Program-made: the position numbers and the translations under genes
The notes under the pieces: model-generated
The model's input: the letters and a program-made list of their open reading frames with translations, nothing else
Databases searched by the model: none
Told to the model about the DNA's origin: nothing
Shown: one piece after another, positions 1 to 59,875 of the stretch
Layout of the letters: each line of letters opens with the position of its first letter
Position numbering within the stretch: the first letter of the stretch is position 1
Source: Octopus vulgaris
Taxonomy: Eukaryota
DNA length: 64,000 nucleotides
Direction: 5' to 3'
NCBI GenBank assembly: GCA_951406725.2
Contig: OX597818.1
Span: 13,888,001 to 13,952,000 of the forward strand

Positions 1-1418
1 AAGGTTCCGAGATGATACAAGCCCTGGACACTTTGCTTTTACATTTTTAGCAAACATTTCCCGAATATAGCTTAGACTGAGCGATGTTCAATATTTCCAT
101 ATACACACACACGCACACATACATACAAACACACATACTTATATAACCATTACCATATCCGATTGAGGAGTTATAATATATCTATGTCCTGCCTAATCAG
201 CCTGGATTTGGCTTTAATAGCATTGTCAATAGTATATCTAACAAGAATTCTTACCTCTCAGTTAATAAGCGTTCCTTTAGTAAACATGCCCTGTACTAAA
301 ACCTGATTCTCCAGAATAAAATATTTGTTAGAATTTCCTTATACCCAGTAGATTAAAAACAAAAGTAACACTTATTTTTCTCAGTTGACAATCTAAGCCT
401 ACCAGGCTTGTCTTTACCCATCAAAACACCGTCAACTTGAAACTGTATTCCCTTACAGCCAGTACTTACCCAGTATTACGGAAGGTGAATAATTTCATGT
501 TCTCCCGCGGTAGACTTCTCATCACCTCACTGCGTTTTAAGAACTCCAAGAGCTGAAAGCTGAGATCTAGTTTGCCCCATAATTCTTTCTCCAGTTTAAA
601 TCTTTTACCAAACTTATTTTTCAAAATCCTTATATTTAATTTATCATCAGATAATCTTTAATAAAAATTAAATAAAAATCTCGTATTCTACAACACCACA
701 TTTAGAATCAAGAATTACCTCTTCCAATAGTGAGGCTAAGTTGCCTTACTGTGGAACTTATGGTTTGCTCCCCTGAGTCCAACATTAACCCACCAGATAC
801 TAATACAAGGAACTTCAAACATAGCAACTAGTATCATTTAAACTTCGAATGACGTGTTAAGTTTAAGAGGTACAAGAACTGTAATCATATTATATTCCAA
901 CGCTAACTCTAATCTCCTGTAATCTCACTTGGAATGGTCCTTCAATTAGAATATAAGTTCAGAATCCCTATCTAATACTTGGATCTTCAGTTCAATTCAC
1001 TCAATCGCATGGGTGAGGCCTTGAACAAAGTTACATAGGAAAGTATAATTTGGATGAATATGTACAACTATTTTAAATTTAAATAAAATAAAAGGATATA
1101 GGTGCAACATCAAAAGACACTGGGGCACTTATTAAGCAGTAACACGTGTCAGATTGCAATTTTATAACAATAATGGCAGAAGATATATAATTCTCCATTC
1201 TTCTGTATGTTGTATATATATATATATATATATATATAATAATAATAAATATTAGGGAATAAATCCAAATTTACAGGGAAAAAATCAGATTTCGGATTAA
1301 ATCCAATTTTATAGTAAAATATTATAAAATATTATTAGAGACAAAACCACTATTTTGCAAAACAAACAAGGAAAGACTTAATCAATACATAAAATTTTAA
1401 TAAATAGTCAAAAAACCG

Positions 1419-1461
1419 CCACTACAATTGTTTCCTGTCTTGATCGACAATCTTCAGGTGG
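1419..1461 (-). ncRNA. Minimal type I hammerhead ribozyme (sense to the PLE)
   Basis: Reverse complement reads ccac CUGAAGA uuguc-gaucaa-gacag GAAAC AAUU GUA gugg. Stem I is ccac/gugg, stem II is uguc/gaca, stem III is the palindrome ACAAUUGU, and the cleavage triplet is GUA. Confidence 0.85.
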
Positions 1462-1627
1462 ACTTCCAATCTAAAATATCAATATTTTAAAATATAAAAA
1501 TAATAATTTTAAAATAATTAAAGTATTAATGAAAAAATATAAATATATAATCCATATATAACCTATATATAATCCATATATAATCAATATATAAACAATA
1601 TATAAACTAAAATAAACCTATCAACAA

Positions 1628-1715
1628 TTAAATATAAAATATAAAATATAAAATATAAAATATAAAATATAAAATATAAAATAAAAAATATAAAATATAA
1701 AATATAAAATATAAA
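1628..1715. repeat. 7-bp tandem repeat (ATAAAAT)n; inverted counterpart at ~6125-6230
   Basis: Read directly. The mirrored ORFs 1584..1772 and 6067..6276 differ by 21 nt, which equals 3 units. Confidence 0.85.
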
Positions 1716-1949
1716 ACAAAACAAAAAAATAATAATAATATAATAATAAACTATATATACACCCATACACATATAACTAATTATATATAACCATATCTAA
1801 CTACATACACTAAATCACACTCCTATATATATATCCCTATACATACACATAAAAACGTCTAGGCAACTATAAATAAATAAAATAGCTAAATACTTCAACA
1901 CAATACTTATTCATACTCTCACACACACACATACAACCCACATTCACGC

Positions 1950-3620
1950 TCTAGAAACGGACATCACTTAAAATTATGAACGGAGAAATGGAATAAATGG
2001 AATTAAAAATTATATTCACTTGGTAAAACGAACACTACTTAAAAATTATGAATGAAACAATGCAATAAAACAACAGACATCGCAAATAGACACAAATTAC
2101 TACGAATTCCTTAACAAACCTACCATGATAAACCAAAACTCATAAAAACATATAATGATAAAATCTCCCTTTACTAAACTCTATAACATACCTATATAGC
2201 AATCCCCCTAACCTAAACATTCACACACAAATACACACACGTAAACCACACACCCACGACATATACAAATACCCACACCACTTACACATACCTATACATA
2301 CAAATAAAACTCAACATATACACCAAAAACCCACTCAACCCCACACAGACAAATAAACACAAAAATTATGAATGGATTCTTTTATAAAACTACCATGATA
2401 AGCTAAAACTCACAAAAACATAAATGATAAAACCTCCCTTTACTAAACACTATAACATACTTATATAGCAATCCCTTTAACCTATACATTCACACACAAA
2501 TACACACACGTAAACCACACACCCATAACAAATACAAACACCCACCCCACTCACACACACCCGCAAGTACATATAAGCATCAACATATACACCAAACAAA
2601 ATTACTTTACCAAGGAACTTAACATATGTATAAAAAGTATAAACGCTCTGGAAACGAACATCTTATAAAATAATGAATGGAGAAATGGAATAAATGGAAT
2701 TAAAAATAATATTCACGTGGCAAAACGAACACCACTCAAAAATTATGAATGAAACAATGTAATAAAACAACCAACATCGAAAATAGACAAATTACCACGA
2801 ATTCCCTAAAAAAAAAAAAACCATGATAAACCAAAACTCTTAAAAACATATAACGATAAAATCTCCCTTTGCTAAACTCTATAACAAACCTATATAGCAA
2901 TCCCCCTAACCTAAACATTCACACACAAATACACACACGTAAACCACAGACCCACGACTTATACAAATACCCACCTCACTGACACATACCTATACTAACT
3001 TATACACCTCAATATACACCAAAAACCCACTCACTCCCCACACAGACAAATTAACACATACATCCCAAGACCTAAATAACAAACCCATATACACATTCAC
3101 ACACAAACACACACACACGCAAAACACACACACATAACAGATACATATACTCCCTCACATATACGCATATACATACTCACTAAACTCGATATATACAACA
3201 ATATTTACACACCCACACTCATACAGATAAATAAATTATACAACTAAAAACTCACACACAATCTCATATACATAAACACTCCATGAAAAACAACATTAAA
3301 TACATCGTAATTAACCAGAATATCAAAAATAACAATATGACATAAGGAGAAATAAAAAACATACTTACAAGTCAGTTTCAAATTATGATGTGAAATTAAA
3401 TTCTAAGCCGTTAAAAAAATCAAACCAAATTTACGTTACCATAGAAATAAACTTATGTATAAAAAGAATACGCGCCATGGAAAGTAAACGTCATTTAAAA
3501 TTATGAATGGAGAAATAGAATAAATGGAACTAAAAACTATATCCACGTGGCAAACCAACACTACTTAAAAAAAATTTATTATGAATGGATTCTTTAAAAA
3601 AACTACCATGATAAATTATT
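1950..3620. repeat. Modular, diverged tandem repeats inside the PLE 3' region
   Basis: Module 'gaaacg.acatc...atgaa.ggagaaatggaataaatggaattaaaaa' at ~1950, ~2646 and ~3478 (also ~5476). Module 'ccatgataaaccaaaactc...ctccctttactaaac...cacacacaaatacacacacgtaaaccac' at ~2121, ~2391 and ~2821. Confidence 0.8.
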
Positions 3621-5008
3621 ATATACATTTATGAGCTTTAGCTCATCTTAGCAGCTCTAACAAACAATTTGCAGTAACCCAAACCTATTCTCGATGCCTA
3701 CCTTACTACTACACTATTCCATTCCCAATTCCAATCAACGCTAGCCCACCACCCGGTTACAATTCCCATCTCCACTCATTCATTCACAATTTCAGCGACG
3801 TTCGCCTCCACAACGCTACGTATTAGCCTCAATATATACACCGGTGATGCGCTTTCACATCCGTGCGGATAGATGATAGTATACATTGAGTGTAGTGATG
3901 GGGCTCACTTTACTATACACATTTGTACCTGTGTAGTAGTCTCCATGTGTATATTCACGCACGGGTATAAATGCGGGGGGTACACGCGCACGGCATGTGC
4001 GTGTACCCCCTCACATGTACATATGCATGCTAATTGGGCTCAATATGTGCAACGGTGTAATCGCGCCCGCATACATGCAGATGGGCGAATTGCACAATCA
4101 AAATACGCACACATGTGTGTGTGCGTTCCTTGGTTGTGCAGTTCACCCATCTGGGTGTGAGTGGGTGTAAGCGTATTGCTGTGGATGTCGAGCTTGATAC
4201 GTATGTATATGAGTGTGTATTGGGGGGTTGTACGTATTTATTGTGTGCATGTGCTTCACGCACGTGCGTCCATGTATGGATGAATATATTGGGATTGCTA
4301 TGTGGGTGTAAATTGGGTATGGAGGGGGGAGTTTTGTCATTGTATGGGTGTGGGTTTCATTTGTGATGTTGGTTTGTTGGTGATTTTTGGTATGTTCTGT
4401 ATATTTGGGTTAGTTATGTATTATTCTAGTGTGTATAATTGTATACCTATATGATTGGTGTGAGTGGGATTACGCCCATTTTTGGGGATGTATGTGTTTA
4501 TTTGTCCGTGTGGTACGGGAGTGGCCATTTGGTGTATATGTTGAGGCTCACATACAATCCCAGGTACGCGCGAATGAAGTGGGCACTTATATTTGTTATG
4601 GATGTGTGTACTTTATTATAACAGGCAATACCCAAATAAAAACTGTCAATTCAACATACCAAATAAAAAACAAAAAACAAAGGGATCGTAAACATTCACA
4701 CATACATACAAAACTCAATAAATACACCACTAAATAACACCCATCAACATATAAATATATCCTCCAAAATACACATAACAAATAACAAATGCATAATAAA
4801 AATACATAATAAAATAAAATAAAAATAAAAAAATATATAAATAAAGAAAATAAAAAAATCTAATATAAATTATTAAAGTTTTAACATACCATAAACTGTT
4901 ATATTAATATACATTAAAAATGAACTAATTAAAACAAAGAAATAAAAAATATAATTATCTAAACTAATTTAAACTAAACTAAAGTAACCTAATAGGGAAC
5001 TATTAATG

Positions 5009-5357
5009 CTATTTATCATGAAACTTATTATATAGGTAAAGTAACTTATGTCTGCATTTTATTTTTCGCTCTTCACCAGTATTAAGTAAATTATCATACT
5101 TATAAAATAAAATTTCTTTAAACTCATTAGAGCATAAATAACAACAATTAGCTCCTATAGTATATGATTTAGTTTTACAAATTATTTCCCAAATTAAACT
5201 ATAATTAATATTTAGTGATTTAAGACTCCATATGTACTTACTAAGTCCGGTTGAGTTGATTAAGTTTTTATTTTTAAAAGAATTCATATGTTGTGCGATT
5301 CTTAGTTTTATTTTTGAGGAAGTAGAACCTATATAAACCGCTTTTGGGTAATTATTA
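5009..5357 (-). pseudogene. Penelope-type GIY-YIG endonuclease, C-terminal fragment
   Basis: Translation: VYIGSTSSKIKLRIAQHMNSFK...STGLSKYIWSLK...WEII...CYLCSNEFKEILF...LLN...KCRHK. It is collinear with the 27614-28063 endonuclease. Confidence 0.88.
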
Positions 5358-6398
5358 TTAAATACAAACACCCACCCCACTCACACACACCCGCAAGTAC
5401 ATATAAGCATCAACATATACACCAAACAAAATTACTTTACCAAGGAACTTAACATATGTATAAAAAGTATAAACGCTCTGGAAACGAACATCTTATAAAA
5501 TAATGAATGGAGAAATGGAATAAATGGAATTAAAAATAATATTCACGTGGCAAAACGAACACCACTCAAAAATTATGAATGAAACAATGTAATAAAACAA
5601 CCAACATCGAAAATAGACAAATTACCACGAATTCCCTAAAAAAAAAAAAACCATGATGAGTTTAGTAAAGGGAGATTTTATCATTATATATTTTTATGAG
5701 TTTTGGTTTATCATGGTAGGTTTGTTAAGGAATTCGTAGTAATTTGTGTCTATTTGCGATGTCTGTTGTTTTATTGCATTGTTTCATTCATAATTTTTAA
5801 GTAGTGTTCGTTTTACCAAGTGAATATAATTTTTAATTCCATTTATTCCATTTCTCCGTTCATAATTTTAAGTGATGTCCGTTTCTAGAGCGTGAATGTG
5901 GGTTGTATGTGTGTGTGTGAGAGTATGAATAAGTATTGTGTTGAAGTATTTAGCTATTTTATTTATTTATAGTTGCCTAAACGTTTTTATGTGTATGTAT
6001 AGGGATATATATATAGGAGTGTGATTTAGTGTATGTAGTTAGATATGGTTATATATAATTAGTTATATGTGTATGGGTGTATATATAGTTTATTATTATA
6101 TTATTATTATTTTTTTGTTTTGTTCTATATTTTATATTTTATATTTTATATTTTTTATTTTATATTTTATATTTTATATTTTATATTTTATATTTTATAT
6201 TTTATATTTTATATTTTATATTTTATATTTAATTGTTGATAGGTTTATTTTAGTTTATATATTGTTTATATATTGATTATATATGGATTATATATAGGTT
6301 ATATATGGATTATATATTTATATTTTTTCATTAATACTTTAATTATTTTAAAATTATTATTTTTATATTTTAAAATATTGATATTTTAGATTGGAAGT

Positions 6399-6441
6399 CC
6401 ACCTGAAGATTGTCGATCAAGACAGGAAACAATTGTAGTGG
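6399..6441 (+). ncRNA. Minimal type I hammerhead ribozyme (inverted arm copy)
   Basis: ccac(6399) CTGAAGA(6403-6409) ttgtcgatcaagacag GAAAC(6426-6430) AATT GTA(6435-6437) gtgg. Confidence 0.85.
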
Positions 6442-6650
6442 CGGTTTTTTTGACTATTTATTAAAATTTTATGTATTGATTAAGTCTTTCCTTGTTTGTT
6501 TTGCAAAATAGTGGTTTTGTCTCTAATAATATTTTATAATATTTTACTATAAAATATATATATATATATGATATGTGTTTGTGAATAAACACTTACATAC
6601 ACACATACACACATACATATATACATATATATATATATGTATATGCATAT

Positions 6651-16314: not shown

Positions 16315-16717
16315 CAGATTTATACATATATATACAATATATACAAATATACAAATATACAAATATATGCTTTTTAAATACTTTTCTCGCTGGATTTCGT
16401 GTTCATTTCTGTTTTTGCGATTTGTTGTTTTATTTTTCATCTTCTTTATAAATGAGAATATTTCCTCCGTCTGGGTGTCTTGCTTTCTACAAAACGAGTA
16501 ATTACATTGCGGAAGAGTTATTTTAACGTGTTGTATTTATATATCAACTGACGCGATACACCTGCACTGCTGGATGCTTTTGAACCTGTTGCTGAGTGTC
16601 CCACCCATGAGGAATCGATGCTAGATGTGTCGCAACAATTGTTGAGATTAATAATAAATTCTCGTATATTCCATCTTCCGTCTTTCACTTGCCATATATA
16701 TATATATATATATATAT

Positions 16718-16988
16718 ACGAGAAAGAAGCAACAAGAATGGATTAGTCTTTAGTACAATTGTTTCATACAAAGACAGGCTTTATTACAAGTTGCAAAATT
16801 TTGTAATAAAGCCTGTCTTTGTATGAAACAATTGTACTAAAAACTAATCCATTCTTGTTGCTTCTTTCTCGTTTATAATCACCCCACATTACTGTATGGT
16901 TAACACCATATAGTTTTTCTGGTGCATCTAAGTTAAGTACCACATTCAAGTAAATTCATTGGAATTGACTTGAATCTTAATTGCTTTG

Positions 16989-16993
<5 letters not shown>
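16718..16993 (+). mobile_element. Minimal PLE fold-back insert, same family as 26245-30191
   Basis: 72-bp arms 16718-16789 / 16801-16872 and a tail 16873-16993 homologous to the reverse complement of 26245-26364 (the paired ORFs MNVVLNLDAPEKLYG / MNAVLNLDAPEKLYG show this). (TA)n on both sides. Keeps GAAACAATTGTA but not CUGAUGA. Confidence 0.9.
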
Positions 16994-17020
<27 letters not shown>

Positions 17021-19690: not shown

Positions 19691-21960
19691 TAATTTTTAC
19701 TTTTTTATTGCGCTCTCGCTTTTTTTTTCAGCTTTTATAGTGAAAAGTTAGTTAATTCTCCCTCTCCCAGTATATAACATGTACAAACATTCTGCAAACG
19801 TTAATGCAAGCTTTCAAGTTATGTTTGGTGTTTCGTTTTGTTCCTTTCATTGCCAATAGAAACACAAGAATAATACAAGTGAATATATTCTCATATCTAT
19901 GAATCCAATGCAAATATTTTCGTACACAAGTCTAATATTTATAAATGGCGTCACTAAATTCATCGATCGTTTTGCAATTATCATTAAAGATTAATTTATA
20001 TAACGTAAATGGCTGCAAATACACAAGCAACGTATCCTACTCGAATTAAGTAGTTTACAGTTTATATATATATATGCGCACATAGACACGCACACACACA
20101 CACATATAGACATATACGTAGTGAATTATTTACCTTCTCTTCTATTGTATCAACTTGTCCTAAGCTTGTTATTTCCCTATTCAGTTTAATTAGCAATTTT
20201 TAGGATATTGTTTCATCCCGTTACCATCATTTATAATGTCCTTTAATTTGCTTAAATTTCTAAACATGATTAAGTAATTTACATTTGTATAATGTAATAG
20301 TTACATCCCTTCATTCACTACCTTACACTATTCTTTACTTTTTGGTTTGTTTTGATTTTAATTGTCTCCTGTGACATATTTATTATAAAGTTTTACGTGA
20401 TTACTAAGAGTTTAGACCGCATTATTTGGACTTATATTCCTGTACAGTTGTCCTTTCAGTGAGTTTTTGCCTTCTCTCCTCCTCTATTATTTATCTGTAT
20501 TTTTCCCTTCTCTACACTCTTTTAGATTAATTTATGATCTATCTTGCCGTCTGAACTTCGTATCATTTATATCGTCGTTTATCTATTTATCTATTACAAA
20601 TTGTATTTTCTGTGGCTGTCCTTTTTTCTTTCTTCGCTCTTTTTATTTACTTTCTCGTATATGGTTTCATCTTTCCTCTACCTTCTCACCCACTTTCATA
20701 GATTTTTCTTACTCTCCCTTCCAAGCCTTTATTTTTGCTCCGTTACTGATACAGTTGCCTAGACACCCCAGCTTTTATCCTCATGTTTTACTCGTAGGGC
20801 TTTATATAAATCATCAGCAACTATTATGTTTATTATTTTTCTTGAAGGGAACAGGTGGCGACACGAAAAATATATATAACCATTATTTTGCGTTTATACA
20901 TATATACTGAATGCTTATTATTACTGCATGAATTTGATATCGAATCTATGAATTGTGAAGCACGCTCAAAGGTTTGTCCATTGACAGTTGGGTTATATTT
21001 CCACTTGACAAAATCCAGGAACATTGCAGTGTTAGTTGCGAACATAATCATGGATGAAAGAGACGGAACATGGATTTGGCATTTGACTTAATTCGGTACA
21101 ACGATAGCTTCGGCCCCTCCTGTAACTGTCCTTTATGGATGGGATGTTGTGCATCCATCAGGGCTTTCTGGGTCCCATCAGGTACATGCACACATAAAGT
21201 GGTGCTCCGATAAGTATATTGTGCTTTCACTGTCATGTTGATGTTTGCCCCGCTAGCACAGCAGGAAAACATCGATATGACTGCGATAACATACACTATT
21301 TAGCGGAAAATCACTTTAAATTTTTATGTTCCTGATGTGACCCAGCCAGCACTGATGAATACAACAGCAATCCATCCATAAAGTAAAGTTTCAGGTGGGG
21401 TCGAAACGATCCTCATACTGATTAAAGACAAATGCCGAAATATCTTACGTTTCTTTCATCGATTATTATATATACATATACATATATAATTATAATAATA
21501 AAGGTTTTTTGCAACAAGTTGCTTAACCACATACCGAAAATTTTAGAAATAGCAGCCAAAAGACTACTATTTCCTTTTACTACAAAAATACGTCTCCACA
21601 GACAACAATATTTGTAACTCACATATGGCAAAAGAAAGAAGAAAAATAATGTATTTCCCTCCAGAATTTTTACTACGTGAGTCACAAAAAATAGTACTGC
21701 CGAAAAAAAGATTCGTAATTTTGTCGTAGGGGAGTAAAATAGTCATTACAGATATAGGGTGAAATATAATTAATTTAATAAAATCAACAAATTTCGGTAT
21801 AAAAAAGATCCATATTCGGTAAAAATTTATAGAATTATATTAATAAGGGTTTTTTGCAACAAGTTGCTTAACCACATACCGAAAATTTTTAAAATAGCAG
21901 CCAAAACACTACTGTTTCCATATATATATATATAAATATATATAAACATACATATACAGA

Positions 21961-22002
<42 letters not shown>

Positions 22003-22006
<4 letters not shown>

Positions 22007-22556
22007 CGAAGAATAGGATATCTGACTCGTTAGTAAGAGCAGTTAAAACTCCAAGCCACCAATTGTTGTAATTACCTTAATCCTAGACCCTGCAAGGTTT
22101 CTGCAGACTTAAATACAGACTGAAATAAATTGCCGATTTTCTTCCAAAATTAGCCAAAAAACATTTTACCATTAATTAAATTCTGGAAGAAAATCGGCAA
22201 TTTATTTATTTAGTGCTGGTTGATTTCTGCATCTGCACGGTAAATTCGAAAAATTAGAACCTATAGACACGTGGCTGACTACTTATAGCTCCATGTCTAT
22301 GGATTTAGTCTTGGCAACCTACTGAGGACGCAGCGCCAGATATAGACTGAAATGATCTTGTTTCAGTCTGTATTTAAGTCTGCAGAAATATTGCAGGGCC
22401 TAGAATTAAGGTAAATTTTTTTTTTATTTTTCAATCACTTTCGGAACTACAGCGATGGGTGGCTTGGAGTTTTAACTGCTCTTTCTAGCGAGTCAGATAT
22501 CCTCTTCTTCGGGTATCCCTTTCGTGCTTGAAGATACACTGTATTCTTCTCTGAAT
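22003..22556 (+). mobile_element. Fold-back insert with nested inversions and a short tail (PLE-end-like)
   Basis: Inverted arms 22003-22125 / 22361-22515 (left arm has a ~30-nt deletion). Second inverted pair 22123-22151 / 22179-22207. Tail to ~22556. (TA)n on the left. Confidence 0.7.
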
Positions 22557-22639
22557 AATATATAGTCTATTGACTAATTTTTTTCTTTCTCGCTAGACCA
22601 CTGGTAACTAAGAATTTTTCGATGAATATTCTTGCCACC

Positions 22640-25893: not shown

Positions 25894-26229
25894 AAATTAA
25901 ATAAGGGTAGAAATTGATAATTAAAACCAGTGGCCTAGCATATTCAAAAAATCCGAAGATTAAGACTCTTTTACATACAAAATTTAGAGGATTGACTACT
26001 AAAATTGGACAGCCTGTATGCTAGATATAGACGTCAAAATCGCCAGTTTCCACAGAGAATGTATTCTCAAGAAAACAATTCAGCAAAAAACCAAAGCGTA
26101 AAAATACGCTTTGGTTTTCGCTGAATTGTTTTCTTGAGAATACATTCTCTGTGGAAAATGGCGATTTTGACGTCTATATCTAGCATACAGGCTGTCCAAT
26201 TTTAGTGGTCAATCCACTAAATTTTGTAT
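25894..26229 (-). mobile_element. Fold-back insert: ~125-bp arms plus ~80-nt tail, between (TA)n tracts
   Basis: 25975-26100 is inverted to 26105-26229 around a 4-nt AAAA loop, with few mismatches. Tail is 25894-25974. Confidence 0.85.
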
Positions 26230-26393
26230 ATATATATATATATAGTAAAATCAATTAAGATTCAAGTGAGTTCTATTGAATTCACTTGAATGCTGTACTT
26301 AACTTAGATGCACCAGAAAAACTATATGGTATTAACCATACAATAATGTGGGGTGATTATAAACGAGAAAAAAGCAACAAGAAAGGATTAGTT

Positions 26394-26483
26394 TTTCAGT
26401 ACAATTGTTTCATACGAAGACAAGCTTTATTAAAAGCTGCAAATATTGCAGCAAATACAAGTGTCCCGTATCATCAGCCAAAA
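26394..26483 (-). ncRNA. Type I hammerhead with extended stem II (sense copy; lacks the G after CUGAUGA)
   Basis: Reverse complement: uuuugg CUGAUGA uacgggaca...ugucuucguau GAAAC AAUU GUA cugaaa. Confidence 0.75.
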
Positions 26484-27613
26484 CACATATGAGTTTTCCA
26501 AGCATCCTAGTGGGTGATGCTACACTCATGAAGTATCGGAGATAGTTCTATAAAAAGCAAATTTAGGTTGTAAGCAGACTTCCAAAGTTCTCTAATGATG
26601 TTGCACAGTCTTATAACAGGTTTTAAAAAAGCTTGTTAGCTTCACAGAGAAGATGAATCCATCCATAATGTAGATGCAAATTACCGGAGATATGAGGAGA
26701 TATTTCATACTCACAGACGATGAATCTATCCATGATTAATCCATAATAAGGTAGGTATAATTTCCTGATATATGATAAGATAATTGTCACACTTCTGTTC
26801 ATTTCACAAAACTGCTATGTTAGAATTATAATGGCTGAGGGAATTTTGTGGAGCATAGAAAAACCGCCCACATAGAGTATTCTGGGATAACTGAGAGGGA
26901 AGGGGTCGCAGGTACCCACCTACACAGAAAGATCTCTTTCTCTGGAGACAGACAGTCTGGCTTAGAATTTGCAGGAATCTAAGATTTATAAAGGAGAACA
27001 TTACTTTTGACCAGTATACAGCTGTTAATTGCCAATCCCACGGAGCTAAAGCAGATATAAGAATCTAAAGAGAACAAGGGAAGGGATAAAGGGGTCAAAG
27101 GCTATCACTAGAGGAAAATACATTAAGAGAATTAAGTGCAATACTAGAAAGGAGGCCATTTAATTAATTAATTTATTATTGTTACTGTTTATACAATGAC
27201 AGTCTGTAGGTCTATACTTAGAGGTCAATTACAAGTTGTGAGAGAATTGCTTATCATATTGAAATTTCTTATACTACTTTTAAGGGAGTAGCATTACTTA
27301 TTTAACTTTATAATAGAATTATGAAGTATTAGTAACTTATTTGATTTAAGTTGTGTTACCTAAATTAGATTAAAATTAGATTAACTTAAAATAACTATAT
27401 AGTCAATTAAACTTTTTTAGGCAACGTACAAATACTATAAATTTCTTTATGTTCCAAATCAGGTGCAGTTAGAAAGAAAGAAATAACCATAGTGTAAGAG
27501 CTCGCGGTTATCTATTTAAAAATATTAGAGTTTTGTTTTATTAGTAAAAGCAAGATAGATCTATCTCCATACGATTATTCTATACTATTTTTATTTAAAA
27601 TATTTTAGAGACT

Positions 27614-28063
27614 TCATTTAGCATGAATACAAAATTGACCCAGTTCTATACGGTTATTTAACAAATTCCTATTTTTTGTATGCATTAGAATTTCATACGT
27701 CTCCATGGAGCAGAGCTGGCAACCAACCCTGTTATTTCTATAAGGCATCGCTCTTCTAACTATTTTCCAATTAATGTTATATTTAATATTATTATTTTTG
27801 AGTTCCCAGATCTTACTTGAAAGTGTGGTGGTACCAGCTTTATGACGTAATTTAAAAGAGGAGATATGATTGCTAACTCTTTTCCTAAAATTTATAGTAC
27901 AACCTAAATAAAGAAATTTGCTATTCTCAATAGTTATGGTACATTTATAGATTACGTTATTTACACCGCACAGACCAGGTGCCGGGCATTTTGACCTAAT
28001 TCTACAATTACACCTAGGGGGAACATCTTCAGATGTTGAATTATTTATGGATAGATGTTCCAT
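27614..28063 (-). pseudogene. PLE GIY-YIG endonuclease domain
   Basis: CNCR..CP..C..NVIYKC...YLGCT.NFRKRVSNH.SSF...LSSKIWELK...WKIV...PY...CQLC..E...IL...LLN.R.E...C.H. Confidence 0.92.
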
Positions 28064-28804
28064 GTTCTTGCTATTCTGATTATCATGAGTATATTTATCG
28101 TTATTATAGTTAATGTTGTTATCTAAAGCAGTGTTATCATTTATCGATCCTTTTACACTATCATTTAGTTATATAGTCCTACCATGATTACCTACATTAT
28201 TGGTATTGTTACTATTATTGCTATTATTTGTATCCGAACGTATATTGTTGTTATAGATATCAATGTTGTCTTCATTCCCGGTATTTTCTCTATTAGCATT
28301 ACTCATATTATTAACATTATTACTCCTATTAATATTAATATTATTATTAGTTATTCCATGGTTATTGATTCTACCTATGTTTTGATAGTTACTATTGTTG
28401 CGGTTATTGCTTTTATTTTTTATAGTATTATTACAATTGTTATTGGTATTCATGTTGGTATAATTTTTATCTTTCCTGGCTAGCTTAATGTTATTATTAT
28501 TAATCTTAGCTATTAATATTAAAGTGGACATATTTGGGAGGGTTGAAAAAGAAATACTAACCGCTTTTTTAGAAATAATTCTATGATATCTATGAGAGGC
28601 TGGGAAATTTTTTCTAGAATTACTTTGAATTTGCTTTGTATATCCGATAGAATCGCTCTGGTCTATGTTTTTATATGTATGATTAGGCTTGTACGTTAGA
28701 TTTGTAGTTACCGTAAATCTATTTCTACTTTTATTTCGGGTGTGGTCTATATTGTTGTTTACGTGGTTACTAATACCTTCTTTATTAGGAATATGTAAGC
28801 TCTC

Positions 28805-29995
28805 CTAATCAATAAAGGTAATCTTTTGGTTGTATCCTGCCTTAGATAACGCCGCATTATAATGCTCAAAATTAGAGTTAAATATATCATTATTGGATGA
28901 TAATTTAGAGATTCTTAAGGAAATATTTCCGACCAAAGATTTAATTATATTTGGGGGATGATTGAATAATTTATTTACGTATCTCGTGATTTCACCTTCC
29001 TTTCTAAATGGGTAATGCAGCTTAGAGTTAAGGTATAATGTAATACCTAGGAAATTGACTATTTTAGTGCCAGGTTCATACGTTATGCTAAGGTTGAAAT
29101 CGTTAAAGAACTTATTAATTTTCTTTCTAATCCTTTCAATGCTAGATTTATTATTACTAGGGATAACAAACAGAGCATCATCCCTATATAGACAACCTTG
29201 TAATTCTGGGATATCCTTATTTATGCATTTTAATAGATACGCGCCTACCAAGTTAGTCACCTCAGCTGAATCACCGGAACCCATGGGTATATCGAAATTA
29301 TTAGGTGTATTAGTCCATAACTTTTCTTCAAATTCAATAAATGTTTTCTAGCTAATAACACAATGTCGATTTCCTCTCTAGATATGAGGGAGCGATTCTT
29401 AGCAAATATAAGTGATTTATTTAGCAAAATAGGGGAAATACTAGAGTAATAATTATTTATGTCGAACTGAATAAAGGACAGACTACTAGTATTAGTTAGA
29501 GAGTTAAACCATTTTAATACCTCATCGGTATTTAGCCATAGACTTAAGGGAAGAAAAGGGGTTATTTGGGGTAGAACAGTATCAAGGATAGATTTACTAA
29601 GCCGGCCAATGTCTGACTTAGTTGGACAAATAAGCCTTACCGAAGGGTTTTCCATGAAATTCCTTTTGTGGTCTTTAAGGTTGATTCTAGGTTTACACGG
29701 TTTTAGCGGCTCCGTTCTATCTGTTAAATTGTATCTTTCCATATTTTTTTCAAATTTTTCTTAGTAGTAATTTTATATTTGGAGTTGAGTTCCTTCTTGC
29801 TATAAAGAGTGTAATCTACTCTATACAGATTACCAGTTTTATCCGCTGGTACTAAGATTCCTTGTTTATTCCGGGTTGAATGAATAAAGTTACTGAGATG
29901 TTTGAGGTGAGGGTTGTATCTTAACGGGTGTTCCTTGAATTTAATATCTTCTATAAGATTCAGTAAATCTTTTTCGAAATTCTCTAGGAGTGGGT
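28805..29995 (-). pseudogene. PLE reverse transcriptase, frameshifted
   Basis: Motifs ADKTGN; LKDHKRNFMENPSVRLICP; FIQFDINNYYSSI; PMGSGDSAEVTNLVG; LYRDD; VNFLGITL; NHPP. They are split over several frames. Confidence 0.92.
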
Positions 29996-30072
29996 TTGCT
30001 TTTTATAGAGCTATCTCCGATATTTCATGAGTGTAGCCTCACCCACTAGAATGCTTGGAGAACTCATATGTG

Positions 30073-30163
30073 TTTTGGCTGATGAGTACGGGACACTTGT
30101 ATTTGCTGCAATATTTGCAGCTTTTAATAAAGCTTGTCTTCGTATGAAACAATCGTACTGAAA
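30073..30163 (+). ncRNA. Type I hammerhead with extended stem II (inverted arm copy)
   Basis: ttttgg CTGATGA(30079-30085) g-tacgggaca...gctgcaa-tat-ttgcagc...tgtcttcgta-t GAAAC(30146-30150) AATC GTA(30155-30157) ctgaaa. Confidence 0.75.
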
Positions 30164-30190
30164 AACTAATCCATCCTTGTTGCTTTTTTC

Positions 30191-30251
<61 letters not shown>

Positions 30252-30546
30252 TGGTTCCCTTTCGTTACGAGAGAGTCAAGGAGGAAGAGTGAGAGAGAGA
30301 TAGTACGATGAACAGGGGAGGAGAAGAATAGTGAAGGGTGGGAGAAAAAACAGAAAGGAAGAACAAGAGAGGGAGGGAGATTGACAGAGAAGAGATAGTA
30401 GAGATACAAGAGTGCGCATCGTAATTATTAATATAAAACTTACTTGGAAAAGGATGCGTGGCGTTCGATCATATGATAATATAAATAATATATGAATATA
30501 TGCATATATACATATATACATATATATATGTACATACCTACATATA

Positions 30547-32135
30547 CAGTGGAGGGAAATAAATATTCGTAAAAGACAAAATTCTTTATTTATTTAATTT
30601 CTAATGAACATAAATTGGATACATCTGTACTATATTTGCAGACAGATGCATAAACTAAGAATATGCAAAAGAAACTAATAAATTATAGTAATTAAGGAAT
30701 TTATATACAATCATAAATATTTAGGGGGGGGGAGTATTCATACAGAATAAATTTATGATTTTCTATGCCACAAAACACTGTTAAAATAATTTTTTTTTAC
30801 TAGAACTTTCTCGTTTGTTCCAATAATCTTATCAGTTGTCATTTCTAAGTGTCAAAACGCTAGCTTCTTCATTCAGCACTGAGACACCATAAAGTAGTAT
30901 TGTAATAATGGCGAAAAGTAAAGAACTCATAAATACAGTGAAAAACTTAAATACTGAACAATGGAAAGCAGGTAAAAGTTACAGGAAAATATCAGAGACC
31001 CTTTGTATTCCATATCTTCATTTATTCAAATATATAAGAAATTGGGAACTGTTGAAAACAGAATAAAATCCAGTGCACCATGCAAGATTTCCCCTAGATC
31101 TTTAAGAAGAATGAAGGGAAGAATCGAAAAAACGCAATGATCACCAGAAAGGAGTTGCAAGAAGATTTGTAAGGTTCAGGGACTAGTGTTACACTATGAA
31201 CAATCAGCAATGAACTTCATAGGAATGAACTGAAGTCACGCTCTTCTAGAAAAACTTCGCTGTTGACTAAAAGGCACAGAGATGCCCATTTAAAATTTGT
31301 TTATGAACATAAAGATAAACCTGATACATTCTGGGAAAATGTTCTGTGGACAGACGAGTCGAAAACTTAATTGTTTAGAAGAAATTCGCATAGCCATGTT
31401 TGGAGGAAAGATGGTACTGCCTATTCGCCGAAAAACACAATTCCTACCATAACGTTTGGAGGTGGCAACATCATGGTGTGGAGGTGTTTCGCTGCAAATG
31501 GTACTGGTAATTTACATGTGATAGATGGTAGAATGAATGCAGAGATGTACCAAAATACTTTGAACAATAATTTATGGGACTCTGTAGAAAAGCTCCAGCT
31601 TTGTGAAGGGTGGGTTTTACAACAGGATAACGACCCTAAGCACACGGCGAAGTCTACCAAAAAATGTATTGTCGATCACAATATAAAATTATTAGAATGG
31701 CCAAGCCAGTCACCTGACTTGAACCCCATTGAAAATTGTGGTGTTATTTGATAATTAAAATTCATTCAAGAGCCCCAACGTGTTTTCCAGATTTGAAGAA
31801 AATTTGTCAAGAAGAATGGGAAAAAATTCCTAAAGAAATATGCGAGTCATTGATTAAGAAGAGATTGGTTGAAGTGGAACTGAATAATGGTTATGCTACG
31901 AAGTATTAAATCAGAACTATCAGTTATGTTCTTTACGAATACTTTTTTCAACCCAAAATTTTTATAATTGAATATAAATTTAATAGTTACTATAATTTAT
32001 TAGTATCTTTTGCATATTCTTAGTTTATGCATGTGTATGCAAATATAGTTTTGGTGTATCCCATTTATGTTCATAAGAAATTAGATAAATAAAGAATTTT
32101 GACATTTACGAATATTTATTCCCCCCCCCCCACTG
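30547..32135 (+). mobile_element. Full-length, inactivated Tc1-family DNA transposon with ~200-bp TIRs and TA target duplication
   Basis: TA|CAGTGG ... CCACTG|TA. TIRs at ~30547-30745 and ~31925-32135. Internal transposase pseudogene. Confidence 0.95.
30908..31909 (+). pseudogene. Tc1 transposase, DD34E, with stops and frameshifts
   Basis: MAKSKEL start; VLWTDESK; FGGGNIMVW; QQDNDPKH...SPDLNPIE with 34 residues between D and E; GYATKY* end. Confidence 0.95.
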
Positions 32136-32164
32136 TATATGTATATACACGTGCATATATTGAT

Positions 32165-32345
32165 ACAGGACATAAAAAAACGTTAAACACAATGAGAAAC
32201 GAAAAGATAAAAATAAAAACATACAAAACGAACTTTTCCTGACCAACGAAAACAACAAACAGAGAAATGAGACATGCAACATAAGGAATATTCCCCTTCA
32301 TCAGTTTTTTATCATCAGTAGTTTATCTACTCCACATTTCGAAGG

Positions 32346-32397: not shown

Positions 32398-32402
<5 letters not shown>

Positions 32403-33022
32403 AACACATGAGGAATCTACTCGTGGGATTCAACACGCTAGAAAGAACAGCTAGCTTCCATAACCACAAAATTAGGGATAAAATTCGATAGGAATGAAGT
32501 GAAAAACTTTTTTTTAAATTTACCATCTAGACTATGTATTAGTCATAAAATACAGTGTACATTTAAATACATGAGGAATCTACTCGTGGGATTCAACACG
32601 AAGGACTGCGGCTTCGCAGTAGATTTTGAAAAGAATTAGAATGTATAAACAAGAGGCACATAGTTTGTTCGTCTCGTGTTTATATATTTAACCAAAGGTG
32701 TTCCTGCTAAGGACGATTTCAGCTAGTGAGTATATGTGATTTACTTGCTAAACTAAAATCAGAAACCAATTTGTCCAGGAAACTAGATGGTAAAATGTTT
32801 TTACTTTTTCATTTCGTCCCTGTCGAATTCTATCCCTAATTTTGTGGTTATGAAACCTAGCTGTTCTTTCTAGCGTGTTGAATCCCACGAGTAGATTCCT
32901 CATGTGTTTAAATGTACACTGTATTTTATGACTAATACATAGTGTTTGGACTAAATTTTTACCCGTTAGGCTACTGGAAATGAAAATTTTAATTAATTTC
33001 CATTTACCCTCGATATGATTAA
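32398..33022 (+). mobile_element. Fold-back insert with two stacked inverted pieces and a tail
   Basis: 32398-32530 is inverted to 32783-32913. 32531-32600 is inverted to 32874-32943. Unpaired end runs to ~33022. (TA)n on both sides. Confidence 0.8.
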
Positions 33023-42526: not shown

Positions 42527-42674
42527 TATACATACATATATATACACATATATACGTATACATATATATGTATATATGTATATATGTATATATATATATG
42601 TGTGTGTGTGTGAATGTATGTGTATTTATATATATATATATATATATATGTGTGTGAGTATGTGTGTATGTACA

Positions 42675-44097
42675 TAATTGTTAAAGATGACAACAAACGT
42701 TAAGTCAAGACAAATATCTCAAGTCATATACGTTATTATTATTGGAAAAATTCAGTCCTACAGCTCTCTCTGGGATATCCCAGAGAATGGGATATTCCGT
42801 TATTGGGGAAAAATAAGGAAAATGAAAAGAGTATAGAGTAATGAAATTACGATACATAGGACAGAAGACATTGAATTAGGAGATGGAGAAAGAAAGAAAA
42901 AAGACATAAATGTTCACACTTCAACTTTCTGATCATGTAGAAGTAAGTCCGTAACTCCTTAGGTGCAATCCTGCATGTCGGTTAAATTCCTAATAGTGTA
43001 AATATCCAGAAATGGATGCGAACGTATCAACGTTCAATAACAGAATGGTATCGGCGGTGGTTATTAAATGGAAAGAAGAAAGAAAAATAAATATATAAAA
43101 TGAGAGGCAGAGAGAGTGAGGGAGGAAATCAAGGATTGGTACTAAGGAGAAAATAAGGATATAGTGTATAAGAATATAGTATATATAAAAATAGATATAG
43201 AAGGGTAAATAAGGTGAGAGGAGGAGAAGTTAAAGGGAGATAATTTTTTAAAAAACTACAAAATAGTAAAATGAAAGGTATTCAAAGAGAATACTGGGTG
43301 CCGGCGGAATTCTTCTAGTCTGTACCCACTATTCGCTTTGAATTCCTTTCTTTTACCATTTTAAAAAATTATATTCCTTTAACTTCTTCTCCTCCCTTCT
43401 TATTTACCCTTATATATTTATTTCTTTATTTATCTTCTTGGTTATTCTGATAGACTACGACCTTATATACCTTATTTTATTCTTAGTGCCAGTTCTTAAT
43501 TTCCTCCCTCACTCTCTCTATGTCACTTTCTATTTATATATTTTTCTTTCTTCTTGCAATTTAATAGCCACATCCTCTGCCATTCTGCTACTGAAAGTTG
43601 ATACGTTCGTGTCTATTTCTGGAAAGTTACACTATTAGGACTTCATCCTACGTGGATTTACACAGGATTACTGCACATAAGTCCTACTTCTACATGATCG
43701 GGAAGTTGAGATGTGTGTACTTTTATGCTTCTTTTATCTTCTCTTTCTTCTTCTCCTTATTCCTTTTCTCCTGCCCTCTGTGTCGTCATTTCATTACTCT
43801 TTACCATTCTCCTTCTCCCTTTTTGTCTCCGATGACGGAATAACCCATACACCTGCCATATCCCAGAGAGAGGTGTAAAACTGAAATTTTCCAATAATAG
43901 CAACGTATATTACTTGAGATATTTACTTGCCTTAACATTTCTTGACCTCTTTAACAATTATATATCCGCTACATCGGAAATCTACACTGGCTTTAAAACT
44001 ACTGTCGCGGCTATAGCCTTGGAACCCTTGCAATTCGTTACAGAATGTATTAGCGTACGTAGTTGTTTAGCCCACCTGTGAAATAAACCCACGTACT
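42675..44097 (+). mobile_element. Old, diverged large fold-back (~630-bp arms) with tail and hammerhead relic
   Basis: 42675-~43300 is inverted to ~43322-43961 (e.g. ataattgttaaag/ctttaacaattat; atatctcaagtcatatacgtt/aacgtatattacttgagatat). Tail runs to ~44097. Relic 'tccgatgacggaata...atatcccagagagaggtgta' at ~43826-43878. Confidence 0.75.
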
Positions 44098-46746: not shown

Positions 46747-47141
46747 TGATCGTCATTTTCAAATCCTCCGAACGTTCTTGCATATATCTCAAGTGTGGGT
46801 CAAAATCATGATATTTTAAAGGAATTTTGGAATGCTTTAAAAACCATCTCAATGAACATGATTAATATAAGACACAAGCAACGACAATCAGATGTGACTG
46901 CCTTAAACTCTTAATAACACAACTGAGTCTAATGCTTTAGCAAGGTAAACATTATCACTGAATCATTATATCGGAGAATACTGTAAAGTACCAAGTGTAT
47001 TTCCAGTGTACAACGAATTTAAGCTAAGGAAAATATGTATTAAATAATTGATCCCCTCATATATATATTAATATAGATATTGATAGACACATACATCCAT
47101 ATATGTATATATATAAAACATTCAACCTTTAATCTTTAATA
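46747..47141. repeat. 395-bp direct repeat, copy 1 (copy 2 at 48244-48638)
   Basis: Offset 1497; only one substitution noticed (gatattga vs gatgttga). Confidence 0.92.
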
Positions 47142-48243: not shown

Positions 48244-48638
48244 TGATCGTCATTTTCAAATCCTCCGAACGTTCTTGCATATATCTCAAGTGTGGGTCAA
48301 AATCATGATATTTTAAAGGAATTTTGGAATGCTTTAAAAACCATCTCAATGAACATGATTAATATAAGACACAAGCAACGACAATCAGATGTGACTGCCT
48401 TAAACTCTTAATAACACAACTGAGTCTAATGCTTTAGCAAGGTAAACATTATCACTGAATCATTATATCGGAGAATACTGTAAAGTACCAAGTGTATTTC
48501 CAGTGTACAACGAATTTAAGCTAAGGAAAATATGTATTAAATAATTGATCCCCTCATATATATATTAATATAGATGTTGATAGACACATACATCCATATA
48601 TGTATATATATAAAACATTCAACCTTTAATCTTTAATA
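48244..48638. repeat. 395-bp direct repeat, copy 2
   Basis: Matches 46747-47141. Confidence 0.92.
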
Positions 48639-55520: not shown

Positions 55521-56033
55521 GCATGGTGAGATGTCTATATAGTCTATATAGGAGTGACGCACTGTTTGTAGTCTCAAAGTATATTAAATAGAGTTATAGG
55601 AAATAATTGTTTAGATATATCAAAAGTGCAGATATGTCCACAATATTTATTAGTAATCATAAAATATTCAACTGCTTGTATGTTATATTGGAATTTCACA
55701 CTGGCTATTATAGGTAGTATCATAAGCTCAACGAGCATTTACTATATGTAAATCGCCTCAGAACGTCTATACGTTATGATCTTTGAGGGCAATTACTGTT
55801 GTCTTCGGTCTTCAAAATAACTCATTCAAGTTGAGTTGGATGTACAAGTTAATAGCCGTTACAAAGGCTGATTCCATCGGTAATAACTAATTTCAACACA
55901 ACCTAAGAGCTTTTTGCGACATCACTGGCTATTTATTTACTTGTAAATACATCGATATGATGGATGTTCAATCTGGCATTCGGTTGTTGAAACTGAGTCT
56001 TTTTTCTTTTCTTTTTACTTCTTTTACTTCTTT

Positions 56034-58589: not shown

Positions 58590-59005
58590 TATAACTGTCG
58601 AGAACCTAAGGTTTTCCCACTCACCCAGGCATGTATGATAAACGTCATCTTATATGAGGTTGAAGTGATAGCTACGCTCCAAGACAAATCAGTTGAAAAG
58701 AAGTGTTACATCGGGCTATGTGATGATTATTTCAAGCGACGTTATGCAAAACAACTTCTTTCAGCCACATCGGTAAACCCAATGCAACTAATTTGGCTAG
58801 CCCTGTATGGAATGTGAAAAGCAGCTCCGCACCACATACAATTAAGTGGAGAATAGTGTATAGATCCAAGTCATGTGTTAATGGATCTAAGAAATGCAAC
58901 TTATGTGGAGCAGAAAGATCTCATATTCTTTTTCGATCCAGTAATTCTAAAACACTACTTAATTCGAGATCTGAAAGTTTAGCAGCTGCAGACACATGGA
59001 CAGGT
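58590..59005 (+). pseudogene. PLE GIY-YIG endonuclease remnant, frameshifted
   Basis: YNCREPKVFPLTQACMINVILYEV...CYIGLCDDYFKRRYAKQ / LASPVWNVK...IKWRIV...KKCNLCGAERSHILF...LLNSRSE. Confidence 0.85.
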
Positions 59006-59875
59006 TTCTTTTATCAAATTGGAGGACCCCCGCCGACACTAGATTGAGTTTCCGTCTAGCAGACAGCAACTGTTAAAATTAAATATACAGCCGAAAGGAC
59101 CACTAATAGTTTCATTTTATTATGATACTTGAACAAGCATATTTATAAAATACGTCATGTATCTTAAATTAATCTTTTAGGCTCTGTCAATGCGTTATAT
59201 ATATTCTTTAAAAACAAGGACGCTAGAGAGTAAGAAAAACAAGAAAAAAGGAAAAACGTGAAGAAGTTGGTGCAAAAAACGGAACGAGAAAAAAGAAACA
59301 AATTCAAGAATTACGATCCTTGTCCTCCCTCATTAAAGAAAGTTCATTAAATACAACAGGTTTAGGTCAAAATAACAGAAAATATATAATTTCTTTCGTC
59401 TTGAGATTGTGGTGGAATCTGAGGTTATTATTTTGAGTAAAATTTTATCATCTAGCCACAATCTAGTTCATAACATTTGGTTTTTCAAAAACGCCTTAAT
59501 TCTAGTTGGGATGGTTCGACAACAGAAAGTAATAGAATAAGGAAATAAGGAACAGAATTTAAAAATCTGTACCAGGGTTCATTTGATTTATCTCAAGGTT
59601 TTCTAACAGCAAATCACATGTTTATCTAACATAAAAAAACGTGCAATGATGAATAATTAATACCAACATTTTCCAGATTCCTGTTTGATATATAATACTT
59701 CTGTAACAAATATTTCCAGAATTTTCAGTTGTAATGTGTAGGTTACATCATTGCAACAACGGCAGCCACCACATATCAGATTGGTGTACGGGAATAAGCA
59801 GAGGTGCTCCAAGAGAACACGGCTTGGATTTTTGTCATACTTACATTACATATATATATATATATATATATATAC

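Follow-up and report, generated by a model that had tools for sequence, protein, structure and literature searches.

A 276-bp fold-back in Octopus vulgaris is a truncated insertion of a Hydra-clade Penelope-like retroelement that shares its outer end with a longer copy

Within the 64,000-nt stretch of Octopus vulgaris DNA analyzed here (the window), a 276-bp piece folds back on itself at the remains of a ribozyme hairpin, and its inverted arm stops at nearly the same site as that of a 3.9-kb element further along, which raises the question of what sets these two points. A preliminary description had proposed that the outer end is programmed, either by a nick site or by the footprint of a ribonucleoprotein (RNP), and that the inner turn falls where reverse transcriptase (RT) stalls on RNA structure. 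We find that the 276-bp piece (the mini copy) is a 5'-truncated, dead insertion of a Hydra-clade Penelope-like retroelement (PLE), in AT-rich surroundings with many microsatellites, and that its shape, an inverted arm plus a tail, is already published PLE anatomy. It consists of the following parts:

16694 to 16718, no strand: (TA)n target on the short-end side of the mini copy
16719 to 16800, minus strand: tail-less inverted arm, with its outer end at the putatively fixed short end and its inner end running into the stem-II hairpin
16790 to 16800, no strand: unpaired center, a partial copy of the stem-II apical hairpin
16801 to 16871, plus strand: direct (tail-bearing) arm, beginning at the first base 3' of the stem-II hairpin
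16872 to 16994, plus strand: tail of 122-123 nt with two predicted hairpins (hairpin A at 16880-16924)
16995 to 17020, no strand: (TA)n target on the tail side of the mini copy

The arms (16719-16790 vs 16800-16871) are identical at 75 of 77 aligned positions, and the short end lies 35 nt 3' of the predicted ribozyme cut. The tail-less arm ends about 10 nt further into the hairpin than the start of the direct arm, which keeps GAAAC, stem III, and the GUA cut site. As had been described, CUGAUGA is lost: a motif search found no CUGANGA core in the mini copy, where only GAAAC..GUA (16825-16836) is left.

The longer copy, at 26245-30191, has the same layout around a broken coding region:

26227 to 26244, no strand: (TA)n target on the tail side of the long element
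26245 to 26365, minus strand: tail of 121 nt, with predicted hairpin A at 26311-26355 and hairpin B at 26260-26291
26366 to 26561, minus strand: the stretch of the 3' pLTR that is repeated in the inverted arm
26392 to 26484, minus strand: type I hammerhead motif with CUGAUGA at 26477 and a 59-nt stem II
26436 to 26452, minus strand: apical hairpin of stem II, 7 bp
27614 to 28168, minus strand: GIY-YIG endonuclease with CxCX5C linker and CxxC and CxH motifs
28169 to 28804, minus strand: thumb region and asparagine-rich stretch, with in-frame stops at both bounds
28805 to 29994, minus strand: reverse transcriptase in three frames, with the DKT motif
29995 to 30191, plus strand: tail-less inverted arm of 197 nt with a whole hammerhead (CUGAUGA at 30079, 60-nt stem II)
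30192 to 30228, no strand: (TA)n target on the short-end side of the long element

Its arms (26366-26561 vs 29995-30191) agree at 188 of 196 positions, and the hammerhead copy at 26392-26484 has one base fewer after the core than the copy in the other arm. The elements of a minimal type I hammerhead (CUGANGA, GAAA, UH, stems I and II, and a short palindromic stem III) are present in the long element only; its lowest-energy predicted folds differ from the active fold, and Rfam gave no match in the window at gathering score.

Judged by motifs and anatomy, the long element is almost certainly a broken copy of a PLE of the Hydra clade, which was defined by Craig et al. 2021 (PMC8557442). As in endonuclease-bearing (EN+) PLEs, RT and GIY-YIG lie in one reading unit, together with a pLTR, an inverted 5'-truncated copy, and a tail at one end. 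The Hydra-type traits are a C-terminal EN, a change of DKG to DKT (PADKT, in the 5' frame), a CxCX5C linker with CxxC and CxH flanking conserved E and N and no CCHH (read by eye in the translation of 27614-28168), and insertion at (TA)n combined with a hammerhead motif. The copy is truncated downstream of the place of the N-terminal RWK motif, and its RT begins near residue 70 of a 704-aa relative (P0003), along which the protein is 29-38% identical; frameshifts and stops break the reading unit. Pfam matches to RVT_1 (E 0.003) and GIY-YIG (E 0.004) are both below gathering score. The best protein match of the RT piece, 82% identical, is an Octopus sinensis protein misnamed as a kinase, and the RT pieces are 35-49% identical to the best Hydra-type loci. 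Naiad, with an N-terminal EN and no canonical hammerhead, was dropped since the EN here is C-terminal and a hammerhead core is present; Nematis was also considered and dropped.

We note that the window holds other elements of similar form. A second Hydra-type element at 1238-6553 has a tail of about 67 nt, arms at 1306-2181 and 5658-6555 (97%), ribozymes at 1457 (minus) and 6403 (plus), GIY-YIG at 5009-5380, and about 3.7 kb of 3' region, which contains internal repeats; in this element, 5360-5637 is a 100% copy of 2530-2807 that is joined in front of the endonuclease. Three more elements of unrelated sequence run (TA)n-arm-arm-tail-(TA)n (25894-26226, 32400-33022, and 22005-22560, with tails of about 78, 110, and 45 nt), and older fold-backs lie at 21044-21469 and 42671-43964. 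Further Hydra-type endonuclease and RT fragments were seen at 58593-59047 and 55541-55753, and a 311-bp direct repeat, 100% identical, at 46747-47057 and 48244-48554. A DDE_3 transposase fragment (31371-31751, E 1.9e-9), likely Tc1-like, sits between inverted repeats at 30513-30726 and 31952-32165.

The mini copy and the left end of the long element are identical at 191 of 208 positions (92%), which places both in one family, as first proposed. In long-element coordinates the inverted arm of the mini copy ends at about 26364, or at 26363 when the count includes one A of the TA run, and that of the long copy at 26366 (26367), so the ends are indeed 2-4 nt apart. The counterpart of the mini-copy center (16790-16800) in the long element is indeed the tip of hammerhead stem II, a 7-bp hairpin (26436-26452). 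The tail lengths, given earlier as about 121 and about 120 nt, were right for the long copy (121 nt) and slightly short for the mini copy (122-123 nt, 16872-16993/4). By a rough estimate from these two ends, the chance that they would fall no more than 4 nt apart among some 300 positions is about 3%; the evidence from the octopus family consists of two copies read whole.

A shared end would be uninformative if both copies derived from one insertion by segmental duplication, a reading that their 92% identity and similar tails might suggest. We found no homology between the 300-nt flanks of the two copies, and among the 73 columns shared by all arms, the two arms of one copy agree against those of the other at five sites, and no site unites arms of the same side. 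Thus, the two copies are separate insertions; their inner junctions differ as well, and we regard duplication of a single insertion as extremely improbable. We also considered that the mini copy might be a non-autonomous unit that amplifies as such, like a MITE or retrozyme, given its compact fold-back shape and the five shared sites at which its arms differ from those of the long copy. This is very unlikely: it is single-copy within the window, has lost the ribozyme core, shows standard PLE insertion anatomy, and has a tail end without a terminal inverted repeat.

For comparison, we examined relatives: 93 loci that encode Hydra-type proteins, plus 60 stretches surrounding ribozyme motifs in G001. 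The latter is a binned genome that is rich in PLE copies resembling animal DNA. We note that 16 of the loci (L078-L093) come from prokaryote genome records, and are likely host DNA carried into prokaryote bins. Patterns of the element family gave no match in metagenome contigs or in viral contigs, and its RT gave none in viral contigs.

In the relatives, a hairpin motif lies 3' of the ribozyme: GCUC pairs with GAGC, with a 2-nt 3' bulge and an upper stem, and ACU follows. It was found 3' of 32 of 59 ribozyme cores near Hydra ORFs, and in many of the others the sequence stops at the short end or at the contig end. In 76 kb there were 70 matches in sense and 7 in antisense orientation, compared to a shuffle mean of 0.68. 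The pair directly above the bulge, which is outside the search pattern, was Watson-Crick in all 51 distinct instances (27 C-G, 24 U-A), an outcome seen in 0 of 100,000 shuffles, which ignore relatedness, families being split at 85% identity; pairs were counted by anchoring, because in an automatic alignment of 52 copies of the motif the 5' strand was out of register. A second copy of the hairpin follows 55-83 nt on from copy 1 in 16 of 38 families, all selected because they combine a ribozyme with the motif; G001 families whose locus has no ORF are assigned to Hydra by inference. Copy 2 sits 3-43 nt before the ATG, such that both copies fall between ribozyme and ATG. By eye, the published Hydra-1_Ajap consensus begins 2 nt before copy 1 and has both copies, Hydra-2_Amil and Hydra-2_Ajap have copy 1, Hydra-1_Crog and Hydra-1_Obim have variants of the hairpin, and in Hydra-1_Amil no hairpin was found. 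Literature listings yielded no description of a paired hairpin in print; this predicted pair, known from the relatives and not from the two octopus copies, is the novel part of our results.

Copies of the relatives end at two fixed places. Among 104 alignment rows, 38 abutted a microsatellite and 15 ran through; the 51 that ended without a microsatellite, mostly through cross-family divergence or at inner junctions, were left out. Short ends that abut a microsatellite 5' of copy 1 lay 2-6 nt before it in 16 of 20 cases, from nine families, and the remaining four lay 13-15 nt before it, against diverged references. Downstream ends fell 55-61 nt after the start of copy 1 in 16 of 18 cases; some references had been cut at the first TA run, which in part predetermines this figure. 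The distance from tail end to copy 2 was 2 nt (L007), 4 nt (L167 vs L029), 4 nt in three copies compared to L213, and, by eye, about 4 nt in L175 compared to L024. G001 contains 21 places at which the motif is followed after 20-50 nt by (TA)4 (control, 0). Tail-less ends without a matching inverted partner in the locus were found in L207, L206, and L168. We also note that in L213 (G001:C716:2534-2615) a copy that continues into the ORF starts with the second base of hairpin 1, with (TA)n immediately before it.

A fixed outer end is what the published work on another clade leads one to expect: in the in vitro assay of Frangieh 2024 (PMC11167929), the tail of Poseidon is bounded by two RT start sites, both target strands are cut, RNA 3' of the starts is needed, and a dimer is predicted. 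The outer end is thus very probably fixed across the family. What had been presented as a programmed breakpoint therefore holds up as an instance of a published PLE tail boundary, the second of the two mapped RT starts. The 2-6 nt distance from the hairpin of 16 of 20 short ends in relatives favors the RNP footprint over the other option that had been offered, a nick in the element DNA.

Assembled contigs of four sequencing runs (997, 898, 661, and 455 contigs) were also aligned to the element. Of the 24 runs listed, 20 contain part of the element and none contains half of it, and no RNA run containing it is among those listed. The contigs of the four runs show no pile-up of molecule starts or ends, and no TA loose end at 26364 is among the 24 rows listed (there are 305 further rows); such ends may have been masked by the 13 nt of TA that the reference included. 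Four joints are listed, one with a strand change; the lack of hairpin joints is no evidence, since contigs drop rare forms. Depth at 26356-26417 is 1.7-7 times that at 26263-26324 in all four runs, although depth is not copy number and the bin at 26325-26355, inside the tail, is also high.

The tails of the window do not contain the canonical hairpin, either by the strict pattern or by a relaxed descriptor, and covariance models R1 and R2 had no match there up to E 10; the combination of GCUC/GAGC, 2-nt bulge, ACU, and a 2-6 nt distance is likewise absent from them. In both octopus copies a hairpin A is predicted, with a 4-bp lower stem and a 3' strand that by eye resembles the Hydra-1_Crog variant. 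It begins 6-9 nt from the short end, a distance that just reaches or exceeds the upper limit of the 2-6 nt range of the relatives. Both also have a second predicted hairpin that is different from A. Hairpin A may be a loose look-alike of the motif, a candidate and a lead. The octopus-family tail is twice the 60-66 nt of the relatives. Since the motif is missing from the tails in the window, the link between hairpin and octopus family has to be drawn from the relatives.

We next consider the inner ends. The claim that the turn falls at the stem-II hairpin was borne out in the mini copy, and failed in the long copy, whose inverted arm meets the ORF at a point 84 nt upstream of CUGAUGA; the second Hydra-type element of the window turns about 724 nt upstream. 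As a rule, stalling at the ribozyme hairpin did not survive comparison with the relatives. Their 12 events provided 20 inner ends, of which two are at stem II (one inside it and one 3-4 nt 3' of it), three near stem III or the cut site, three at -9 to -14, eleven at -54 or beyond, and one in the tail. One of these values was set by eye (from +50 to +38), and the sample is biased in that most loci were picked for an intact ribozyme core, which undercounts events like the mini copy. A DNA-based search for one family placed none of five inner ends in stem II (40 of 127 candidates scored).

It is therefore unlikely that inner turns cluster at the stem-II hairpin through RT stalling, an account that would fit either model of the outer end. 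Five of the relatives' 20 inner ends do lie in or within 6 nt of the ribozyme, and summed contig depth drops 3-5-fold from 26356-26417 to 26449-26510 in all four runs, a weak indication as depth is not copy number. Against this stand the turns elsewhere, including a joint at 26525/26561, and the fact that 43% of the 237-nt region is in or beside a predicted helix of at least 5 bp, so that one match is unremarkable. For the mini copy alone, a stall at the hairpin is plausible, because the tail-bearing arm starts at the first base 3' of it. We also note that the end of the inverted arm of the long copy at 26561 is one side of the sole strand-change joint listed (26525/26561; one contig, run X3); with two instances, 26561 may be a preferred stop or the 5' end of the RNA. 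Furthermore, in a single case (L088:8257-8307) the inverted arm stops, on its inner side, within 1 nt of the base that immediately follows the predicted ribozyme cut, as would be expected had RT run off a self-cleaved RNA.

Eight junctions could be mapped on both sides: five have 1-3 nt of microhomology, where chance would give at least 1 nt at 45% of junctions, and the other three carry inserts (2, 3, and 14 nt), of which the 14-nt one by eye matches sequence close by. Such junctions resemble the product of end-joining between two truncated cDNAs. As pairing between two cDNA ends of the same sense requires self-complementary sequence, hairpins at the turn could be favored without any stalling.

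A different origin of the arms would be self-copying by a single cDNA: begun at the tail end, it would fold back at a palindrome and continue until stopped or cut at a fixed site, by endonuclease resolution or a bound protein. Palindromes occur at inverted junctions and self-priming has been argued from them (Arkhipova 2013; PMC3846280), the tail has been ascribed to endonuclease resolution (Craig 2021; PMC8557442), a hairpin forms the center of the mini copy, and the junction of one relative contains an 8-bp palindrome. However, in the mini copy and in 5 of 7 Hydra-type events of the relatives, the arm without the tail extends further 5' than the arm with it, an inequality that later deletion at the palindrome center could mimic. 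Moreover, the arms of one insertion (L088:8257-8400) do not overlap, which excludes simple fold-back for that event, solo tail-less copies exist, and two starts were seen in vitro for Poseidon (PMC11167929). We thus consider a self-copying fold-back improbable, slightly more so than clustering through stalling.

The best explanation as a whole, and in our judgment a likely one, is that there are two RT starts, with ends set by hairpins and the cDNAs joined head-to-head. A protein would bind the element RNA 3' of the ribozyme and cut both strands of a (TA)n run. One cDNA would start at the tail end; the other, on the opposite strand, would start about 120 nt 5' of that point and give the fixed outer end. 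A protein-binding hairpin would determine each start from a position 2-6 nt 3' of the start, such that tail length would equal hairpin spacing. Both cDNAs would stop at variable points and likely be joined head-to-head by end-joining; in the mini copy, the stop of one of them at the foot of the stem-II hairpin may reflect stalling. We infer the two starts, at the tail end and about 120 nt 5' of it, from the Poseidon in vitro work and the relatives, and hold them to be probable. A role of the hairpins in binding RT and measuring off the ends is fairly likely in motif-bearing relatives, and is tentative in the octopus family, with its diverged motif, where the relatives are the guide.

In its most specific form, each of two hairpins would dock one subunit of an RT-endonuclease dimer, cDNA would start 2-6 nt upstream on opposite strands of the cut (TA)n, and octopus-like families would use a diverged pair about 120 nt apart; we give this somewhat less than an even chance. 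If true, it would explain tail, fixed outer end, and tail-less solo copies in one step, and the full-length RNA of the octopus family should have a second hairpin A after the tail end. Frangieh 2024 (PMC11167929), in the portion of the paper available, found the two RT starts without a sequence rule for them. An RNA motif repeated twice, a few bases past each end, provides a testable rule for PLE ends. The RTs of PLEs are sister to telomerase, and an RNA element that fixes the start on an internal template would interest that field. For curators, the hairpin motif would be an exact marker of Hydra element ends.

Among known systems, L1 twin priming is similar in that a second priming on the other target strand yields an inverted segment joined by microhomology, and differs in that its second site varies and its segments barely overlap, whereas here the site is fixed and the arms usually overlap. 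For PLEs, Craig 2021 (PMC8557442) described as usual a 5'-truncated copy in inverted orientation and a tail of 30-40 bp, and named the origin of tails and inverted repeats as open. Minimal ribozyme pairs on opposite strands, 100-700 bp apart, were reported by Cervera and de la Pena 2014 (PMC4209133). Passages of the O. vulgaris repeat paper (PMC13282606) and of a retrozyme preprint (10.64898/2026.07.22.740005) contribute nothing further on this.

The long element shares with the Hydra clade (PMC8557442), which includes Hydra-1_Obim of Octopus bimaculoides, RT and C-terminal GIY-YIG, DKT, the CxCX5C linker, CxxC/CxH, the (TA)n target, a hammerhead at the 3' end, and an inverted 5'-truncated copy. 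By eye, its family is not Hydra-1_Obim, the ribozyme sequence of which is different. It also differs in length (>3.9 kb, compared to generally <3 kb for Hydra elements), in its tail (121 nt, compared to 30-40 bp given for PLEs), and in having an asparagine-rich stretch, a 1.4-kb 3' region, and a 60-nt stem II. The available text of that paper makes no mention of the paired hairpin, yet it is visible in the accompanying consensus file.

The Penelope elements of Adineta vaga (PMC3846280) likewise have an inverted pLTR, an optional tail, asparagine-rich inserts, and palindromes and microhomology at junctions; unlike here, they have a 31-bp tail and TSDs, and were explained by self-priming on an antisense template. 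Poseidon PAc of Anolis (PMC11167929) shares a tail with two fixed ends, an AT-rich target, and a hammerhead upstream of the tail. In contrast to the Hydra-type elements, it belongs to another clade, its 30-40-nt tail lies inside the start of the ORF, and both starts fall within one AC-rich stem-loop, no repeated hairpin being reported in the part of the paper available.
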